Shown here: positions 952 through 35,519 of the stretch, piece after piece
Position numbering within the stretch: position 1 is the first letter of the stretch
How the letters are laid out: every line of letters starts with the position of its first letter
From: Nitrospirota bacterium
GTDB taxonomy: Bacteria > Nitrospirota > UBA9217
Assembly: GCA_963751455.1 (NCBI GenBank)
Contig: CAVVUN010000012.1
Coordinates: 320,001 to 384,000 of the forward strand
Length of the DNA: 64,000 nucleotides
Direction: 5' to 3'
Made by a program: the position numbers and the translations under genes
Notes under the pieces: model-generated
The model's input: the letters and a program-made list of their open reading frames with translations, nothing else
Told to the model about the DNA's origin: nothing
The model's database searches: none

Positions 952-2871
952 TTATAACTTTCTCATTTCGCCGCCGAACATTTCCACAACCTTATTTACC
1001 AAAGCCGTCAGCGAGGGGTCGCGCGCTCCCATGATAAGCACGCAGTCTTCCGGTTTCGCATCGAGTTTTAATGTTTTCAATAACTCGTCTCGGCTGTTGA
1101 GGGCTTGCGCATTGAATGGCGCGGGACCAAGGCCGTTTATGATATCTTCCGAGGAAATATTTTTTTGCGCCGTGCCTCCCGCATAATAGATCGGGAGGAG
1201 ATAGAGTGAATCATTTGGCCGGAACGCGGCTCGAAAAGTTTCGATGTATTCGTCTTTCAAAAACCGTGTAGGGCCGAAGCCATGCGGCTGATATACGGCC
1301 AGGATGCGTCCGGAAAGGCCTCGGGCTGCCCGAACAACAGCCGCTATTTTTGCCGGATTATGGGCAAAGTCATCAACCACATGCACGTTCGCTTTTGTTG
1401 CGGTGACGGAAAATCGCCGGGCCACACCCTCATAATTTTTTACCGCATGCGCAAGGGCAGACGGCTCGCAAGCGAAATACTCGCATACGCAGAGCGCAGC
1501 GCACAGGTTTTCAAGATTGTGCTCTCCGGGAAGCGGCAGATGATACTCAGTGCCGCTCCTGAATAATTTGACCGAAGTCGGGAGGAGTTGCTCCCGGTCC
1601 GGCCGCCACGAACCCGAGCCGTTTCGGCCGAAGCGCACGGTTGCAGGAAGCGAAGCAAGGACCGGATCGTCGGCGTTGGAGGCCGTCCAGGAAGATTGCG
1701 AAGCCAGCGTTTTGAAGAGTTTCGCAATGTCCTCAATGCTTTTGTGGTCCTTGGAAACATTCAGGATGACCGATGCTTCCGGACGATATTTGACCACGGT
1801 TCCATCGCTTTCGTCCGCCTCCACTACCAGGAGCTCGGACCCGCCGCTGTATGCATTGCCGATAAGGCCCTGTTTTTCGAGCCTGCGCAGGCCCGCGCCG
1901 CTGATCAACGATGGCGACTTTCCGCATGCGGTCAGGAATTCGAATATCATAGCAGTAACCGTCGACTTGCCGCTTGTGCCGGCGACTGCAATGGTCTTTT
2001 TTAGTCCGATGAGAGCGCTCAGCAGATCAGAGCGATGGACGATGGGAATGCCGCGGCTGCGGGCGGCTACAATATCCGGATTCGATTCTTCTATGGCGGT
2101 TGAAACGCAAATGACATGGGTATCCGCACTCACACCGGAACCGTCCTGCTGAACGATGGAGCACCCGAGGCTTTCAAGCGATTGCCGGATCGGGGCGGTA
2201 TCCTCGCTTGCATGGAAACGATCGGAACCCGAGACCGTGATTCCCTGAAAGCGCAGGTATTGCGCGAGAGCGCTCATGCCGCTGCCGAAAACTCCGGTAA
2301 AATGAACGTTGCGGCATGGATGGCCGTTGATGACAATCGCGGGAGGATCGATATAGACCAGCGTACCTTCTCCGACGGTTTCAAACAGCCGGGTAATATC
2401 GAGATTGCGCATGCAGACGCACCCGTACGACAGGGGAGTTCCGATCAGGTCTTCTCTGCCGGTGCCGTGGATATAAATATAACGCTCATAGGAATCCACG
2501 CCCCCGCCCTTATTGATGCCCTCTTCAAGACCTTCGAGCCGCAGAATGCGGGTCAGGATGAGATTATCCCGGGTAAGACGGTGGTCCCAGTCGATGCCGG
2601 TATCCTCGCGGTCCGTGAAAATGCGACCTACGCGCGCGCCGGCTCCGAACTTTTCCCTGATCCGATGAAGACCGAGCGGCGTTTTGAGCGAGTTTTCCCG
2701 ATTGCCGATGCCGAAGCGGGAGGTCGAGGCGTCATATCGCTCGACGATGGTATCGTTCGAGCAGACAAGGAGCGTCTGTGTCTCGATGGATACGATGAGA
2801 AATAGATCGTGCGGGGCCGGTAAAAACTTCCGTATTTTTTCGTGAATACAGCGTAATCGGACTGTTTCCAT
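952..2871 (-). CDS. L,D-transpeptidase (YkuD-like) domain fused to a MurC/Mpl-family UDP-MurNAc ligase
   Basis: N-terminal KTPLG...IYIHGT...SYGCVCM (His/Cys catalytic motif). Downstream GVFGSGMSALA, VAGTSGKSTVT, VEADESDG and DDFAHNP are Mur ligase motifs. Confidence 0.9.
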   Translation of the reverse strand: METVRLRCIHEKIRKFLPAPHDLFLIVSIETQTLLVCSNDTIVERYDASTSRFGIGNRENSLKTPLGLHRIREKFGAGARVGRIFTDREDTGIDWDHRLTRDNLILTRILRLEGLEEGINKGGGVDSYERYIYIHGTGREDLIGTPLSYGCVCMRNLDITRLFETVGEGTLVYIDPPAIVINGHPCRNVHFTGVFGSGMSALAQYLRFQGITVSGSDRFHASEDTAPIRQSLESLGCSIVQQDGSGVSADTHVICVSTAIEESNPDIVAARSRGIPIVHRSDLLSALIGLKKTIAVAGTSGKSTVTAMIFEFLTACGKSPSLISGAGLRRLEKQGLIGNAYSGGSELLVVEADESDGTVVKYRPEASVILNVSKDHKSIEDIAKLFKTLASQSSWTASNADDPVLASLPATVRFGRNGSGSWRPDREQLLPTSVKLFRSGTEYHLPLPGEHNLENLCAALCVCEYFACEPSALAHAVKNYEGVARRFSVTATKANVHVVDDFAHNPAKIAAVVRAARGLSGRILAVYQPHGFGPTRFLKDEYIETFRAAFRPNDSLYLLPIYYAGGTAQKNISSEDIINGLGPAPFNAQALNSRDELLKTLKLDAKPEDCVLIMGARDPSLTALVNKVVEMFGGEMRKL

Positions 2872-2926
2872 AAGAAACTGCTGCTTTATCCTTTGTAAAA
2901 GTTTATTTCGAACGCTGTCCGGTTAT

Positions 2927-3090
2927 CCTGAAAAAAGCAGTTGGACACGGATAAAATCTGATCAACACGGATTTATAGGAAGTTACGAACAGTAATGGAT
3001 TCACCCAAAAGGCGAGATGGCTTTTTGCTCTATCACATTGTTTTGATCCGCTGTTTCCGTGTTCATCCGTGTTCAAATGCCGTTTTTAGG
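2927..3090. mobile_element. MITE family 1, copy A
   Basis: CCTGAAAA...TTTTAGG ends, long imperfect palindromic arms, central TCACC-loop-GGYGA hairpin, flanked by the direct repeat GTTAT (2922-2926 / 3091-3095). Confidence 0.8.
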
Positions 3091-3218
3091 GTTATAGATG
3101 CCTGGCACTAGTCTCCTTCGCAAAATACTGTATTTTAAAGAAAACGACAAGAGAAAAAAGAAGAGCTGCAGCGTTGTCAGCCTTGCAGGTTGAATGGATT
3201 CGGAGGCGGAATAAAAAA

Positions 3219-4139
3219 TTAATGCATAGAGACCAGGCCCGGTTGGCTACTGGCCTGCTCAGGTGAAACCGTCCGGACGCCCCCTGCACCGGGCCTTTGG
3301 AGCAAAGCGGCCGACTCGAGGTTAATGCCGATCTCGGCAAGCATCAGCGTGCTTCTCCATAAGCTGTTCCTGGAGCGCGCGCCGAGAACAGCGGTATAAA
3401 AGGGGCCCTTGTCCGTGTCGATCGCGCAAACGAAACAGTGCCGCGCATCACCCGTATAACCTGTTTTCCCGATGAAATTGTCCTTTTTCCAGAGCAGATC
3501 GTTCGAGTTCTCCACAACGATTACCCTCCCCGTGGAGGTCGTGACAATCCATATTTTTTTGGAGAGAATATCCTTTATGAGAGGATAAGCAAACGCGGCC
3601 TTCATAATGAGCGCAAGATCGCTTGCTGTCGTGTATTGTATCCCTTCAGGAAGGCCGGTTGCGTTTGCAAATAACGTTTTTTTCGTCCCGATATCTTTGG
3701 CTTTCCTGTTCATGAGCGCCACGAATTCCCGCTCCGTACCGGCGGCAGCCTCGGCAAGGGCGACTGCCGCGGAATTGATGGACTTCATAAGCGCAAGATG
3801 AAGAAGATCGGAAACAGCCATTTCTTCATCAAAATATATTTTCGGCGGAATGGTCTTGACCTTTGCGGCTTTTCTGCTGACCCTTACTTTGAGTGATGGC
3901 TCGAGCTGGTCGAGCACAACCATGGCGGTAACGAGCTTGACCGTGCTGGCGGGTGCGAGTTTTGCGTCGGGGTATTTTGAATAAACCACGGTGCCGGCGG
4001 AATCCATGAGCACGGCAGCCTCTGCCGGGATCGCGTTCCGCGGTTTAGCGGAGACCGCGGGTTCCCCTATGAGGAACAGGATTGAGAACGCAAAAGCAAG
4101 ACAGAGGTATTTAAACGCGGCCGCCCTAGAGATGTCCAT
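3219..4139 (-). CDS. D-alanyl-D-alanine carboxypeptidase (peptidase S11)
   Basis: Signal peptide; SxxK (ASTVK), SxN (SIN) and KTG motifs. Confidence 0.92.
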   Translation of the reverse strand: MDISRAAAFKYLCLAFAFSILFLIGEPAVSAKPRNAIPAEAAVLMDSAGTVVYSKYPDAKLAPASTVKLVTAMVVLDQLEPSLKVRVSRKAAKVKTIPPKIYFDEEMAVSDLLHLALMKSINSAAVALAEAAAGTEREFVALMNRKAKDIGTKKTLFANATGLPEGIQYTTASDLALIMKAAFAYPLIKDILSKKIWIVTTSTGRVIVVENSNDLLWKKDNFIGKTGYTGDARHCFVCAIDTDKGPFYTAVLGARSRNSLWRSTLMLAEIGINLESAALLQRPGAGGVRTVSPEQASSQPGLVSMH

Positions 4140-4332
4140 ATATAAAATAGCGAGATGAAGGAAATGCTTTAAATTGTAATTCTTTGTTCCTGCCCCGTAG
4201 GCGAGCCAATATTAAACCGAGAAGAGGACTTCGTCAAGAATATAGTTCAAGCAAGGATAGGGTGTAGTTGGGCGTGAGGCCGGGGAGATCGGGAAAAAAT
4301 CCGAGAACCGGTATGGATCGGATATGTGTGTT

Positions 4333-5208
4333 TTAAAGTGACCTGGATGATTTACGTTTTCTCGTCTTCGTGGCTTGTCTCTCTTCCGCTGTCTCCACTG
4401 ACGGAACAAAGTCAGGTTCAGATGTCAGATTGACCAGCACCGAGGTGCTTTTCCATAACTTTCTCCGGGAAGGCGCTCCGAGAACCGCGGCATAAACAAG
4501 TCCCTTCTCCGTTTCTATCGCCCCTACGAAGCAGTGTTGAGCCGTGTTCGTGAACCCCGTCTTTCCGCCAACCATGTCGTCTCTGTACCACAGCAGCGCA
4601 TCGGTGTTTCCAAAGCTTAATTTTCGTCCTTGAACCGTAGTGATGACTGCCGTTTTTTTGCCGATGATCTCCCGGATAAGCGGATAGGTAAGCGCCTTTT
4701 TCAGGATGGTCGTTAGATTGAGGGCTGTTGTATGCTGTTCCGTGCCGGGAAGCCCGGATGCGTTCCTGAAATCGGTGTCATTCGCCCCGATCTCCTGAGC
4801 TTTCCGGTTCATCACTACCACAAAATACTCTTCGGTTTGGCTTGTGGCTTCCGCCAAAGCAACGGCAGCAGCGTTGCTGGATTTCATTAAGGCGAGATGG
4901 AGCAGGTCGGATACGGTAACCTGGTCGCCTGCCTTAAGCCGCGGCCTCCCTGAACGCGTCCTTGCAGCAGTGCTGCTGACCGTCACGACGGCCGCCGGAT
5001 CCAGGCTATCCAGAGCTACCATGGCGGTCATCAGTTTTACGGTACTGGCGGGAGGCAGCTTTGTGGAGGCGTTTTTCGAGAACAGGATAGTGTCGTCGGC
5101 ACCAAGGATAACGCAAGCCTTCGCACGGATGGCCCTTGGCGAAAAAGAATAAGCAGGTCGGGCCAGGAAGAGAAACCCGATAATCACAAAAAATAAAATT
5201 CTTCTCAT
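4333..5208 (-). CDS. D-alanyl-D-alanine carboxypeptidase (peptidase S11), tandem paralogue
   Basis: ASTVK, SSN and GKTG motifs; signal peptide begins at MRRILFF (ATG 5208); basic C-terminal tail. Confidence 0.92.
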   Translation of the reverse strand: MRRILFFVIIGFLFLARPAYSFSPRAIRAKACVILGADDTILFSKNASTKLPPASTVKLMTAMVALDSLDPAAVVTVSSTAARTRSGRPRLKAGDQVTVSDLLHLALMKSSNAAAVALAEATSQTEEYFVVVMNRKAQEIGANDTDFRNASGLPGTEQHTTALNLTTILKKALTYPLIREIIGKKTAVITTVQGRKLSFGNTDALLWYRDDMVGGKTGFTNTAQHCFVGAIETEKGLVYAAVLGAPSRRKLWKSTSVLVNLTSEPDFVPSVETAEERQATKTRKRKSSRSL

Positions 5209-28868: not shown

Positions 28869-30389
28869 CTAGAGCCGTTCCAGGGCCTTTTTAAGCGCCT
28901 CCGCCTTCTGGAGGGTTTCGAGATACTCGCTCCGGGGGTCGGAATCCGCGACAATGCCGGCGCCGACCTGTATGAAGGCCAGCCCGTCTTTTATTACGAA
29001 CGTCCTTATGATGATGTTCAGGTCCATGTCACCAGCGTTCGAAATATAGCCGATCGAACCCGTATACGGCCCGCGTGCTACCGGCTCCAGTTCGTCGATT
29101 ATCTCCATGCACCTTACTTTCGGCACCCCCGTGATCGTGCCTCCGGGAAAGACTGCGCGCACGACATCGAAAGCATCCATCCCCTTTGCCAGATCGCCCC
29201 GCACGTTCGAGACGATGTGGATGACGTGCGAGTAATCCTCGACCACCATCATTTCATCGACCCGCACCGACCCGTACTCGCACACCTTTCCCAGATCATT
29301 CCGCTCCAGGTCGAGCAGCATTATGTGCTCCGCGCGCTCTTTTTCATTCATCAGAAGCTCGGCCGAAAGTTTGTCTGTCTCGGCCCGGTCCCTGCCCCGG
29401 CGCCGGGTGCCCGCTATCGGCCGGGTATCGACGGCGCCGTTAACGAGTCGGACAAGACGCTCCGGGGAAGAACTGACGAGCTGCAGGTCCCCGAAGTCGA
29501 GGTAAGCGGCAAAAGGGGAAGGATTGATTTCGCGGAGTACGCGGTAAAGCCGCAGAGGGTCGGAATCGTGCAGCTCGACCGAAAGGCGCTGAGACAGGTT
29601 TGCCTGGTAGATGTCGCCGGCCGCGATGTATTCCTTGCAGCGCAAAACCATGGACTCGAACACCCCGCCCGTAATGTTCGGCTCAAGCGAGGCAGCCGCG
29701 CTTTTTCCGGCGGCCGCGGACAGGGGGGTATCTTTTTCCGCGGCTACGGCTGCGCTGATTTCCGCGATCTTTTGCGTTGCCCCGTCATAGAGACGGCCAC
29801 CCTCGGTCTTCTCCATCCTGCGGAAACCCATCTCCTGCTCCCGGGCGCCCGGGTTCACGATCACCCATATTTTTTGCTGGATGTGGTCGAATGCTATGAC
29901 AAAGTCCACAAATACAAAATACGACTCGGGAATATCCAAATCGCGTACGGCATTCCGGGGGATTTGTTCGAACTGGCGGACAAAGTCATAGGAAAAGAAC
30001 CCGAGTGCGCCGCCGGTAAACGGCGGAAGGCCGGGCACGCGCTCTGTTCTATAGTTTGACATCAGCTCACGGAGCTTGACCAGAGGTTTTCGGCGCATCG
30101 AGGCGCGTCTGCCGAACTTTCCCTCGGGCGTGGCCGGCAAATGCAGTTCGACCGTATCTGCGTGAGACCGGAATATGAGATAAGGACCTGCAGTTACATA
30201 GGAATATCTGCCGATTTTGTCGTTCACGCGCGCACTCTCGAGCAGCATGGGATACCCTTGCGTACGGACGGCTTCGAGGGCCATAAACGGCGTCACGCCG
30301 CTCGCTTCCAGCTCAACGGAAACGGGAAGGATCTTGCCGGATTGCAGTGATCGGACAAATTCGTCTTTTAAGGGCCGGACTGTTTTCAT
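28869..30389 (-). CDS. Chorismate-binding enzyme, component I (PabB/TrpE family)
   Basis: LLESA, GDIYQAN, NPSPF, SSSPE, PIAGT, EHIMLLDLERND, FPGGTITGVPK, GAGIV. PabB versus TrpE not resolved; start uncertain (30389 or 30425). Confidence 0.9.
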   Translation of the reverse strand: MKTVRPLKDEFVRSLQSGKILPVSVELEASGVTPFMALEAVRTQGYPMLLESARVNDKIGRYSYVTAGPYLIFRSHADTVELHLPATPEGKFGRRASMRRKPLVKLRELMSNYRTERVPGLPPFTGGALGFFSYDFVRQFEQIPRNAVRDLDIPESYFVFVDFVIAFDHIQQKIWVIVNPGAREQEMGFRRMEKTEGGRLYDGATQKIAEISAAVAAEKDTPLSAAAGKSAAASLEPNITGGVFESMVLRCKEYIAAGDIYQANLSQRLSVELHDSDPLRLYRVLREINPSPFAAYLDFGDLQLVSSSPERLVRLVNGAVDTRPIAGTRRRGRDRAETDKLSAELLMNEKERAEHIMLLDLERNDLGKVCEYGSVRVDEMMVVEDYSHVIHIVSNVRGDLAKGMDAFDVVRAVFPGGTITGVPKVRCMEIIDELEPVARGPYTGSIGYISNAGDMDLNIIIRTFVIKDGLAFIQVGAGIVADSDPRSEYLETLQKAEALKKALERL

Positions 30390-30538
30390 TATAAAAGATG
30401 TTTGTTGCTCATCGCGGCGAGTCAAGCTTCCAGGTTGACCTGAAATGCGGGCGCGCCGCTTATCAATAAAGACAAAATTTTAAAGGCAATTCCCCGGCAG
30501 GTCAAGATAATTCTCGAAAATTATCAGTGGTGCTTTTA

Positions 30539-30547
30539 TGCTATAAT
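30539..30547 (+). promoter_or_regulatory. Extended -10 promoter for ncRNA 1
   Basis: TGcTATAAT, a perfect extended -10, about 40 nt upstream of the structured region. Confidence 0.65.
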
Positions 30548-30565
30548 AAATTTATAGATTATTTA

Positions 30566-30577
30566 GATCTTTGAAAG
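30566..30577 (+). promoter_or_regulatory. boxA-like antitermination element
   Basis: GATCTTTGAAAG, about 20 nt after the -10, resembles the rrn-leader boxA form (G)A/TTCTTTGAAA. Confidence 0.45.
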
Positions 30578-30587
30578 ATTAATCAGT

Positions 30588-30882
30588 GAGGGCGTTGCCG
30601 AACCAACACCCAATAGGTGAACGTTCTAAACCCGTTTACAAGGGCGATAAGCGCCGACAACCGTTTCCTGCAACCGTGCAGAAAGACCGCAGTTCGGGCC
30701 TTTCTCTCTTTTGCAGGGTTTCGGTAAAACGGAAGTGCCAAAAGCTCGAAGTCCGGGTATGAGGGCAAAAGACGCAAGCTTCACAAGGTCCGCATGGCGG
30801 AGCAGCAGAAGCAGGTCTGATACCCGTTACTCAGCCGGGCTGAACGGAAGTTTAAAGAGATGGTTCGCTGGCAACGCCTTTT
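30588..30882 (+). ncRNA. Unidentified large structured RNA 1 (~295 nt)
   Basis: Fourteen mutually compatible helices found by eye, closed by GGCGTTGCC (30591-99) / GGCAACGCC (30870-78). Promoter upstream; no credible ORF. Confidence 0.75.
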
Positions 30883-30948
30883 ATAATTACAGAACGTGCT
30901 GCGCAGTTGGAATTAAAAAAACCGGAAAGGGTCGGTCAGAGCACTCGC

Positions 30949-30977
30949 TTGACAACCTTTTTTTGGGGTGCTATATA
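30949..30977 (+). promoter_or_regulatory. Sigma70 promoter for ncRNA 2
   Basis: TTGACA, 17-nt spacer ending in TGc, TATATA. Confidence 0.7.
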
Positions 30978-30994
30978 AAGACAAAGATCAAAAT

Positions 30995-31302
30995 GTTAAT
31001 CCAGCCCTTCGGAGGGTTGGATTAGCGAGGCGTTGCCGGGCCGTATTTTATTATCCGTTGAGAACTTCAAGCGTCGGCTTCTCCTGGTTTTTGATGTGAA
31101 GGCCATGTCGGTCGTGAGACCTTCTGGTTTCATGTTGAGGGCTTCGAAAAGTCCGAAGAGGCTGAAACTCCCTGGCCGGTGAATGATCAATGCAAACATT
31201 CTGCATTGGAATCGCGCAAGCGATTTCTGTGAAGAGTGATCATTGAACTTTCTCTGGTTCAACGATGCTATAAAATACGCGCCTTGGAAACGCCTTTTTT
31301 TT
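30995..31302 (+). ncRNA. Unidentified large structured RNA 2 (5' hairpin plus ~270-nt core)
   Basis: 14-bp hairpin at 30995-31026. Core closed by AGGCGTT/AACGCCT, CGTATTTTA/TAAAATACG and CGTTGA/TCAACG. GUGA and GCAA tetraloops, many G-U pairs on the + strand, ends in U8. Confidence 0.75.
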
Positions 31303-31352
31303 ATAAAACCCGCTGGCTTTAAGCAATCAGCAGTAAGTGATACCATGGTTGC

Positions 31353-31925
31353 TTAAAAATAATAATGAATCCCCGCCTCAATTGAAACAGTATCTCCGTC
31401 GACATCAGGGTCCAGTGAAAAAGAAAATCCGTTTATTTCTATCTCGTCATACCGAATAAACCGGTAAATGAAACCGAGATTCAACGCCATATTTCTGTTC
31501 AAAAATCGCTCGAGTCCTGCGCCGAAATTCCATCCGCTGCCTTTCAGAGTCGTATCTGCTCCTTCAAAGGGATTATACTCGTCCAAAGAGTAGGACCCCA
31601 GGCCGAACAGAAAGTAGAACTGGTTGGGATCCACAACAGGGGACACAAAAACACGAAGATCGAGGGTGAACCCGTTGAAATCGGCGCTCCCGAATCCGGG
31701 GTCAGTATCCTCGTGATTGGAACCCATAAAGGCGCCTTCAAGCGCGACCTGGCCGAAATCATAACCGAATTTGAATTGAAGCCCTGTTCCTGCGTCGAGA
31801 TAATCGATATCCGAACTGCGGGGATTGTTAAAGACCAGCCCGGCGCCCACATACGGTCCTTCGTCGGCAGATGCAGGACTCAAACAGAGCAGTATGATCA
31901 GTGCTGATAAAGACAGAATCTTCAT
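31353..31925 (-). CDS. Outer-membrane beta-barrel (OmpA-like 8-strand) protein
   Basis: Signal peptide, GPYVGAG, FGYDF, NFGAG, C-terminal HYYF. Confidence 0.82.
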   Translation of the reverse strand: MKILSLSALIILLCLSPASADEGPYVGAGLVFNNPRSSDIDYLDAGTGLQFKFGYDFGQVALEGAFMGSNHEDTDPGFGSADFNGFTLDLRVFVSPVVDPNQFYFLFGLGSYSLDEYNPFEGADTTLKGSGWNFGAGLERFLNRNMALNLGFIYRFIRYDEIEINGFSFSLDPDVDGDTVSIEAGIHYYF

Positions 31926-32441: not shown

Positions 32442-35400
32442 GTGGCTGATATTCAGTCGTTCAGGAAAAACGTTCAGTCGTTAGTCGCAAAATTCGAGCA
32501 GGACAGAAACCATCACTGCTCAAAAGGCTATCCTGAAGCGCAGCTCCGCGTTGATTTCCTGAACCCGTTCTTCAATGCGCTCGGCTGGGACCTCGAAAAC
32601 CAGTCCAACAAACCGCCCCATGAACGAAACGTAATCGTCGAGCTTTCTCCTGAAACCACCCTCCGTCCTGATTACAATTTCCGAATAAACGGGGACACAA
32701 AATTCTTCGTTGAAGCAAAAGCGCCCTGGGTGCCGCTTGACGACGTGAACCACATTATGCAGGCAAAGACCTATGCCTGGTCCACCAAGGAGGTGTTCTT
32801 CGTAATTCTCACCGACTTCGAAGAGTTCAAGCTCTTCGATGCTTCTCTCAAGCCCAATCCCAAATATCCTCAGCGAAGGCCTTCTTTACGAATTCAAGTA
32901 TACTGACTTATCTTGATAATATCGAGAAGCTTTGGGAGCTTTCCAGGGAACGTGTGGAACAAGGATCGCTGGAAGCCCTGCTGCCCCGAGACCCGAAAAG
33001 CAAGCGACTAAGAATTCCGCCCGACAAGTCATTCCTCGAAGATCTGACCGCATGGCGCACAGAACTTGCCAAGGACATTCACAAGCGCAATCCGGAAATC
33101 GATGTCCATGTACTGAACGATGTTGTCCAGAAGCTTCTTGACCGCATCATCTTCATCCGCATAGCCGAGGACCGGAAGAGCAGACCGGAGCGCGAACTGT
33201 GGGAGATCGTGGCGCAATGGAAGGAAGAGGGCAAGCGCAAATCCATTATGCCCGCGCTCATCGATCTTTTCCGAGAGGTGAACGACGACCTGAACGGCGA
33301 CATCTTCAAGCCCCATGCCTGCGAGAGCGCGGCCGTCGATTCTGAAATCCTCGCGGACATCATCGATAATCTCTATTTCCCGAAAACGCGGTACCGGTTT
33401 GATGCAATCGGCGTGGAACTGCTGGGAAGCATATACGAGCGCTATCTCGGCAGCACAATCCGCGTCACACCAAAACAGGTCAAGGTAGAGGAAAAGCCGG
33501 AAGTAAAGAAAGCGGGCGGCGTTTTTTATACTCCGAAGTTCATTGTCAATTACATAGTCAAGAACACCGTCGGCAAACTTATCGAAGGCAAATCCCCGAA
33601 GCAGATCGAGAAAATAAAAATACTAGATCCGGCTTGCGGCTCCGGATCGTTTCTTCTAGGCGCATATCAATATCTCATTGATTATCATCTCAAGTATTAC
33701 CGTGACCATCCCAAAGACGCTCAAACCCTCTTTCTCGATATCTATGCAAAAGTAAACCCCGAAGACCTCGCCCTGCCACTTAAGGAAAAGGCGAAGATTC
33801 TGCGGAACAACATCTTCGGCGTGGACATCGATCCCCAGGCAGTCGAGATCACAATGATGAGCCTGTATCTCAAAGCACTTGAGGGCGAACGAGGCCTTCT
33901 GCCCCGAAAACAGCACCTTCTCCCATCTCTCACAAATAACATCAAATGCGGCAACAGCCTGATCGGATACGACATCTTCGATGCCCCCGACCAATATTCA
34001 TTATTATCCGTCATTCCAGCGAAGAATTTCGGCGAGCTCAGTCGAGGCGCTGGAATCCAGGGTTCTGGATCCGGATCAAGTCCGGGATGACAAAACAGGA
34101 ACAATGGTCAGACGAAGACCGCGCCCGTATCAACCCCTTCGACTGGACATCCAAATCCACCGGTTTCGGCGACATCCTGGAATCCGGCGGCTTCGACGCC
34201 GTAATCGGCAATCCGCCGTATGTAAGGCAGGAACTCCTCGGCGATTTCAAGAATTACTTCCAGCAGCATTATGAAGTCCTATCACGGGACGGCTGATCTC
34301 TACGCCTACTTCATTGAAAAGGGTGTTTCGCTCCTCAAAAAGGACGGCCTCTTCAGTTATATCGTTGCCAATAAGTGGATGCGCGCAAATTATGGCGAGT
34401 CACTGCGGAAGTGGATGAAGAAGCAGCGAATCGAAGAGATTACTGACTTCGGCGATTTACCGGTATTTGAAAATGCAACAACCTATCCCTGTATTGTGCG
34501 GATTCGGAAAGGAAATGCGGCCATAAAGTTTTCAGCTACGCAGGTGAAGACACTGGATTTCGCTAATCTTGCAGACTATGTTTCTGAACAATGTTATCGC
34601 AGTCAATAGAGCGGCTCTATCGGACGGCGGATGGGCATTAGTGGACGAGCAGTCACAAGCTTTATTGAATAAATTGCAAGCCATTGGAAAACCGCTAGGC
34701 GATTATGTTCAAGGTAAAATCTATCGTGGAGTACTGACAGGGCTTAACGAAGCCTTTGTGATCGATTCCGAGACCAAAAAGAAGCTTATAAAAGAAGACC
34801 GAAAAAGCTCAGAATTGATTAAACCCTTTCTGCTCGGGCGCGATGTAAAACGGTATGAATCGTCGAATGGCAACAATTATTTAATCTTCACTCGACGTGG
34901 TGTTGATATTAAGAAATATCCGGCCATCGAGGAACATCTATTGCCGTTCAAAAAAAGGCTTATGCCGAAACCGGCCGATTGGAAAGGCGGCGATTGGCCC
35001 GGACGTAAGCCAGGGCCTTATAAATGGTATGAAATCCAAGACACGATTGATTACTATGAAGAGTTTGAAAAGCCAAAGATCATGTGGCCCGAGATTGCGG
35101 GCAGTGCTCGGTTTGCCTACGACGATACCGGCTATTACGCGAACAATAAAGTCTTTATTATTCCAGACGGATCAAAATATTTGCTCGGTTTATTAAATTC
35201 TTCCCTCCTCCGTTTCTTTATCGAAAACAACTGCACAGACCTACAAGGCAATAGCTATAACTTTTCGGGTATATTCGTCAGCAGGACACCGATCCGCACC
35301 ATCGACTTGAATGACCCAACTGAAAAAGCAATTCATGACAAGCTCGTTTCCCTCGTAGATCGTATGCTTGACCTCCATAAAAAGAAAGCCGCTCTTCCTC

Positions 35401-35519
35401 CGTCCGCCGAACGCGAAAAAATCGAACGCGAGATCGCTGTGACGGATGAAAATATCGATGAAATTGTTTATAGGTTGTATGGGATTACGAAAGAAGAACG
35501 TAGAATCATAGGAGAGTAG
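32442..35519 (+). pseudogene. Type IIG (Eco57I-like) fused restriction-modification enzyme, broken by about five single-base indels
   Basis: PD..EAK nuclease (RPDY...VEAK), FYTP, ILDPACGSGSFL (motif I), IGNPPYV (motif IV), TaqI-like C-terminal TRD. Frame changes near 32872, 32909, 34071, 34278 and 34597; these may be assembly errors. Confidence 0.9.
34010..34091. repeat. REP/RPE-like palindrome inside the R-M coding sequence
   Basis: GTCATTCCAGCG...CGCTGGAATCCAG...CTGGATCCGGATCAAGTCCGGGATGAC, with the nested hairpin TTCGGCGAGCTCAGTCGAG (34028-34046). Confidence 0.8.

Follow-up and report, generated by a model that had tools for sequence, protein, structure and literature searches.

An uncatalogued family of Y-shaped RNAs across a class of Nitrospirota, with a candidate accessory paralogue beside a boxA-led copy

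Several described RNAs come close to the element treated here. 6S RNA is the product of a free-standing sigma70-type gene, is present class-wide, and has a closing stem and an irregular rod with an A-rich bubble, within about 180 nt. Ms1 and CoRP of Actinomycetota are lineage-restricted and abundant, with their own promoter and terminator; Ms1 is one long hairpin of 304 nt whose central bubble matters to polymerase binding, and CoRP is a precedent for lineage-specific polymerase-binding RNAs of other sizes (PMC4191392 and PMC11077062). OLE, the raiA motif, ROOL and GOLLD are large, covarying and abundant RNAs whose function is open (PMC12286853). The leaders of rRNA operons load NusB and S10, and the boxA of B. 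subtilis binds NusB (PMC13753749).

The family described below shares with 6S RNA the free-standing gene, the closing stem, the irregular rod and class-wide presence, but it is Y-shaped, about 300 nt long, and without the A-rich rod bubble or an Rfam match. It is like Ms1 and CoRP in being lineage-restricted and apparently abundant with a promoter and terminator of its own, and like Ms1 in length, but it forms a covarying Y in which a paired rod leads to two arms, is multicopy, and has a boxA leader in its type 1. It resembles OLE, the raiA motif, ROOL and GOLLD in size, covariation, apparent abundance and open function; unlike for these, our searches found no Rfam match, pseudoknot, phage link or tRNA-island link, and placed the family in one Nitrospirota class only. 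Type 1 shares with the rRNA operon leader the boxA motif, but boxA is here followed by a 300-nt RNA without rRNA-operon similarity. RNA 2, the copy at the centre of this report, itself has no boxA, unlike type 1 and the rRNA leader. Read-through into it from the neighbouring RNA 1 is possible, since RNA 1 ends in only U4.

Within the window (the whole stretch of 64,000 nucleotides that was analysed) the interval 30949-31302 falls in 930 bp of intergenic DNA, flanked on one side by a divergent trpE/pabB-like gene and on the other by a convergent outer-membrane beta-barrel-like gene (Table 1). The latter is a singleton among the neighbours of the family, and no conserved neighbour. RNA 2 does not stand alone: it has ends in common with RNA 1, and the preliminary description missed that the two belong as paralogues to one class-wide family. 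The first 35 or so bases of its interval are, judging from sequence, promoter and not RNA, with the RNA predicted to start near 30984. A consensus scan passed over this promoter because the last base of its -10 element is off-consensus. RNA 1 is probably the weightier gene of the pair (30539-30882, + strand). Further along the + strand, at 32442-35519, a restriction-modification-like methyltransferase gene lies in several pieces with frame changes, by decay or assembly error, and further probable accessory genes follow it.

Table 1. Features of the RNA 1/RNA 2 locus, in positions of the window
Feature	Position	Strand	Remarks
trpE/pabB-like gene, divergent neighbour fixing the core locus	28869..30425	-	NCBIfam TIGR00564, E 1e-145
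RNA 1 extended -10 promoter, TG-c-TATAAT	30539..30547	+	from sequence
boxA-like antitermination signal 5' of RNA 1	30566..30577	+	
RNA 1, type 1 core copy of the family of RNA 2	30591..30878	+	
Predicted sigma70-type promoter of RNA 2	30949..30977	+	TTGACA, 17-nt spacer, extended -10 TG-c-TATATA
5' leader hairpin of RNA 2, 14 bp	30995..31026	+	-22.1 kcal/mol
RNA 2 core, type 2 member	31028..31295	+	P1, paired rod, junction, two arms
RNA 2 closing stem P1	31028-34/31289-95	+	
RNA 2 paired rod	31042-51/31270-79; 31056-61/31259-64	+	
Arm 1 of RNA 2	31062..31170	+	irregular unbranched long hairpin, GGUC-GUGA-GACC cap (family-guided fold)
Arm 2 of RNA 2	31174..31258	+	pair probabilities 0.81-1.0; family topology
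U8 tail, likely 3' end of RNA 2	31295..31302	+	directly after closing stem
116-aa antisense ORF, judged non-gene	30996..31346	-	no NCBIfam match
Outer-membrane beta-barrel-like gene, convergent	31353..31925	-	weak TIGR04565 match

The + strand of the interval folds to -137.3 kcal/mol (z -6.46 against shuffles), and the - strand likewise folds better than chance (z -4.83). The + strand preference claimed earlier holds for the core, at -110.8 versus -89.5 kcal/mol and with 18 G-U pairs versus 6. Every motif listed in the preliminary description is present in the sequence, and several of the proposed structures are borne out by folding: the leader hairpin, the U8 tail, the GAAUCGC-GCAA-GCGAUUU hairpin (pair probability 1.0), and the rod helices AGGCGUU/AACGCCU, CGUAUUUUAU/AUAAAAUACG and CGUUGA/UCAACG, with mean pair probabilities of 0.92, 0.99 and 0.89, respectively. 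The domain 2 helices AAUGAUCA/UGAUCAUU and AAUGCA/UGCAUU are not borne out, having probability 0.0 and a cost of 10.5 kcal/mol; the ensemble instead contains UCAAUG/CAUUGA (0.99) and CAUUCU/AGAGUG (0.96). These helices, together with GGCCGG/CUGGUU and the GCAA-capped hairpin, make up arm 2, for which the minimum-energy fold is the family fold; column counts among close relatives suffer from alignment slips and leave the earlier and the family pairing unseparated. GGGCUU-CGAA-AAGUCC reaches a probability of 0.57 and six close relatives retain just one or two of its six pairs; for a competing helix, UCG-GCUU/AAGU-CGA, 6 of 7 sequences retain 7 of 7 pairs. Both the helix rich in G-U pairs and GGUC-GUGA-GACC agree with the family fold but have a probability of only 0.04-0.05 in the single-sequence ensemble. 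For arm 1 as a whole the family fold lies 5.5 kcal/mol above the minimum-energy alternative, and relatives retain the family helix. The "branched domains" are both long arms without branches.

Most members have a small side hairpin, P2, which is missing from RNA 2 and also from a relative (L383). RNA 2's leader hairpin occurs once in the genome and was not found 5' of six metagenome relatives. The base make-up is unusual, with 29% U versus 16-19% in relatives, and the z of -7.1 is the strongest of its group. RNA 2 is the most diverged member of the family and sits in the longest-branch group of the tree.

The family was reached via RNA 1; RNA 2 alone gave, in a BLAST-type search of 63 relatives, two short matches, of which one was real and the other spurious. 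A DNA search with RNA 1 matched in 19 of 36 family genomes. A sequence model built from 24 copies placed the family in 62 of the 63 relatives, often with several copies per genome; these relatives and the present genome, 64 genomes together, are the whole Nitrospirota class searched. The present genome has five copies, two in the window and the others at C12:189064, C12:197398 and C15:1188375. The fifth copy (G000:C15:1188127-1188375, - strand) is shorter, at about 250 nt, with promoter and terminator intact.

Loci fetched for a subset of the matches yielded 89 distinct copies, 58 of type 1 and 31 of type 2, with three relabelled and the fifth copy excluded. Type labels were first assigned with the boxA motif, and the tree independently separates the types at 100/100. 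RNA 2 groups with a type 2 copy of genome G011 that lies 1.3 kb behind a type 1 copy. With RNA 2 left out of the training set, an HMM of 29 copies, mostly of type 2, matched it end to end (48.2 bits, E 2.3e-12 genome-wide); the type 1 HMM gave 5.1 bits and an HMM of all 88 other members 13.4 bits (E 0.062). All six loci from a metagenome scan are real type 2 relatives, two of them near-identical, and because four of the six have a type 1 copy directly upstream, the type 1-type 2 tandem is conserved. Other arrangements are found as well. Genome G001 (L037, G001:C90) has a tandem in which two copies of type 1 are joined by one of type 2, with a further type 2 copy about 7 kb on, and in G002 (L038, G002:C67) a second type 1 copy, without boxA, lies 3 kb from the first.

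This is an uncatalogued family of large structured bacterial RNA, real and new. Searches of Rfam 15 with the window and eight homologue loci gave chance-level weak matches only, at both gathering and E-value thresholds; two of them, in L229, fall at its terminator. OLE, raiA, GOLLD and ROOL are presumably included in Rfam 15. A pattern scan of 7 of 64 parts of a named genome collection returned 3 real loci among 120, all titled Nitrospirota or Nitrospiria, and with this scope it excludes other phyla only thinly. Other Nitrospirota families gave marginal partial matches in 3 of 114 and 1 of 114 genomes. Two further phyla, chosen via loci titled Acidobacteriota and Geobacteraceae (151 genomes each), gave 7 and 2 partial matches of at most 22.7 bits, and the closing stem was in none of ten weak loci of this kind on re-examination. 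Neither literature searches nor a look for relevant terms in the main texts of two survey papers (10.64898/2026.10.21.760802 and PMC11109978) turned up a description, and the supplements of these could list it.

Both types have a common outline of closing stem P1, side hairpin P2, paired rod, junction, and two unbranched arms of about 85-110 nt. For the covariance analysis proposed in the preliminary description the 31 type 2 copies were used: 84.1% of their cells are paired, and both sides vary at 56 of 86 pairs, counts that lean towards the fold because the structure was drawn by eye from those sequences, and in which relatedness inflates the two-sided changes (P7 and P8a corrected, P5a dropped). 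In controls on the same copies none of 500 shuffles equalled these figures, and slid controls paired 35-41%. By a strand-swap test, 11 of 17 helices show better pairing inside one molecule than across molecules (p<=0.004), the p-values being void for P5a and P7, which were mis-placed, and for P8a, which overlapped P3. Column-level mutual information was dominated by relatedness and uninformative. P1 is the most invariant part across the 89 members, and since it hardly varies it is conserved in sequence as well as in pairing. Of the two strands, the + strand gives the better fold for 43 of 58 copies of type 1 and 28 of 31 of type 2. Paired changes, the strand-swap test and the strand preference uphold the earlier view that a structured RNA is read from the + strand and that selection acts on the RNA itself.

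The types differ at their tips. GNRA loops make up 42 of 66 predicted tetraloops in type 2 and 1 of 68 in type 1. At the tip of arm 1 (e.g. L002:1410-1425), 37 of 58 type 1 copies have an AAGUUGA-type 7-nt loop that is absent from type 2, a candidate for a type-specific contact. The alignments contain no visible conserved pseudoknot or kissing pair. A sarcin-ricin-like loop in arm 2 is complete, with both halves, in no more than 9 of 58 copies of type 1 and in none of the 31 of type 2, and neither rRNA-operon similarity nor anti-Shine-Dalgarno content is conserved.

Gene layout also separates the types. In 56 of 58 loci type 1 has the divergent trpE/pabB neighbour, 52 directly and 4 when read through an overlapping opposite-strand ORF. 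An extended -10 is found in 56 of 58 and a U-rich tail in all 58. About 25 nt 5' of the closing stem, between promoter and RNA, 57 of 58 carry the boxA-like motif, which predicts a boxA-led transcript. The motif of RNA 1 matches the B. subtilis boxA consensus, a near-identical motif (2 of 12 bases differ) lies about 120 nt 5' of both 16S genes of the present genome, and NusB is encoded there. Type 2 copies are scattered promoter-RNA-terminator cassettes of variable copy number. Only 1 of the 30 with enough flank has boxA, and most begin at the stem; 24 of 30 have an extended -10, 19 of 30 a U-rich tail and 23 of 30 a separate terminator hairpin. No partner protein gene was found beside type 2 copies, whose neighbours are heterogeneous (100 of 126 ORFs scanned).

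Expression data come from assembled contigs. Metatranscriptome X2 contains a 155-nt contig that maps, with one mismatch, to 31127-31281 inside RNA 2 (depth 5.6, a low signal), some sign of the transcript that the preliminary description had expected on the + strand, although the contig carries no strand. At the type 1 locus L160 of G006, contigs cover 1474-1754 of 3,313 bases, that is the RNA gene only (3 of 30 bins, main-piece depths of 1,358-4,896), in one library, without strand or true level and with reads from a near relative. The empty flanks are a weak hint only, because contigs cannot rank genes. Type 1 RNA is apparently very abundant. For RNA 1 of the present genome, X2 supplied no more than a 38-nt piece, which came from a relative. 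At L160 the contig of the abundant type 1 RNA starts at boxA (L160:1474), with adapter before it, about 30 nt 5' of the stem; this start downstream of the predicted one is a weak hint of 5' processing. Runs X1, X3 and X4 resemble DNA, and a contig of X1 (30936-31177) takes in the promoter.

Coding explanations were rejected. The antisense 116-aa ORF, whose conservation and translation the preliminary description had named as a refuting outcome, is not conserved: tblastn against homologous loci gave best non-self E values of 0.28 and 0.08, and antisense frames are open in 4 of 58 type 1 and 7 of 31 type 2 copies, where shuffles expect 8.6 and 6.2, with unrelated peptides. No sense ORF is common to the family beyond close relatives. 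Neither candidate thus has a conserved frame or protein similarity. Known RNAs were likewise set aside. SRP RNA, RNase P RNA and tmRNA have no match in the window and are all elsewhere in the genome; for Y RNA and for a CsrB/RsmZ-type sponge, the protein partners Ro60 (TROVE, PF05731) and CsrA (PF02599) each have 0 matches in the genome.

RNA 2 is a stand-alone non-coding RNA gene, an accessory paralogue of the class-wide Y-shaped family of about 300 nt. It likely acts as a stable scaffold or sink that binds protein by its shape (probability about 0.5), rather than as a messenger, by antisense regulation or by mimicking a promoter. Shape-based binding is suggested because the RNA is nearly fully paired, closed at its ends and apparently abundant, and because the types have no single-stranded targeting sequence in common. 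Type 1 would be made by an rRNA-like, Nus-loaded polymerase that aids its folding, and its 5' and 3' ends would pair into a closing stem whose near-invariance suggests that a protein or nuclease recognises it by sequence. Purine-rich internal loops would be displayed on the arms, along with GNRA tips for packing in type 2. RNA 2 and other type 2 copies, each with its own promoter, would raise the dose or be expressed under particular conditions.

Two alternatives to this scaffold or sink concern polymerase. The suggestion that an AT-rich bulged rod mimics promoter DNA in the manner of 6S RNA is unlikely: unpaired runs in the rod of RNA 2 reach at most 1 and 2 nt, and a rod run of at least 10 nt is found in 5 of the 89 members but in 5 of 6 true 6S RNAs from this lineage (a cruder whole-molecule bubble measure did not separate the two, so that an arm may yet hold a bubble). 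RF00013 finds nothing in the window and matches the genome just once, at C2:350970 on another contig; 5 of 5 relatives, like the present genome, carry a canonical 6S gene. Binding of core or holoenzyme as by Ms1 or CoRP, storing or titrating polymerase alongside canonical 6S, draws on the Ms1-like length, the CoRP precedent, the apparent abundance and the long irregular duplexes. It is nevertheless rather unlikely, given a rod without the bubble on which Ms1 depends, a Y instead of a single hairpin, the 6S RNA already present and the absence of an Rfam match. That the RNA builds an RNA-only particle or oligomer through GNRA tips and A-rich loops has precedent in OLE, ROOL and GOLLD (PMC12286853), and would suit the type 2 tetraloops and the missing protein gene link; with GNRA so rare in type 1 and no conserved pseudoknot or kissing pair in the alignments it is improbable.

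Other alternatives concern the standing of type 2. These copies, RNA 2 included, could be selfish or hitch-hiking cassettes that arose from a functional type 1 gene and spread while conferring no benefit. Copy number varies and sites are scattered, and in 21 of 21 pairs compared, a 13-copy subclade spanning five genera (L209, L211-L216, L218-L221, L223, L227) shows greater similarity between genomes (79-90%) than type 1 does (61-81%); about 90 nt upstream and 75 nt downstream are common to most of its copies, and horizontal spread of a small cassette is possible for it. RNA 2, however, belongs to a different branch, which is kept beside type 1 in G011 and in the four metagenome tandems. Flank homology of type 2, judged by eye, fades raggedly without terminal repeats or sharp ends, Pfam matches to reverse transcriptase or integrase number 0 in 100 neighbouring ORFs and to transposase 2 in 23 loci, and the family had no match in plasmid and phage collections and no real locus among 120 viral pattern matches, which together leave the selfish reading quite improbable. 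Decay of RNA 2 into a duplicate that no longer works would account for the long branch, the atypical base make-up, the lost P2 and the weak arm 1, and is very improbable beside an intact promoter and U tail, the strong folding z, the absence of P2 in L383 too, and an RNA-library contig inside the gene.

The class may tentatively be credited with an extra housekeeping RNA beyond 6S, SRP, RNase P and tmRNA, made by the rRNA antitermination machinery and very abundant, and with a mobile accessory paralogue that crosses genera as a cassette. Large, well-conserved bacterial RNAs are rare and mostly have open functions, and the present family is near-universal in its class. Its two subtypes with differing expression signals are a built-in comparison, and about 300 nt with a defined fold is amenable to probing, cryo-EM and pull-down, though the hosts appear uncultured. 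The type 1 boxA leader would take rRNA-type antitermination past the rRNA, suhB and CRISPR cases of PMC13753749, and the tentative picture of a housekeeping RNA, if true, would add an unrecognised category of structural RNAs that are transcribed like rRNA.
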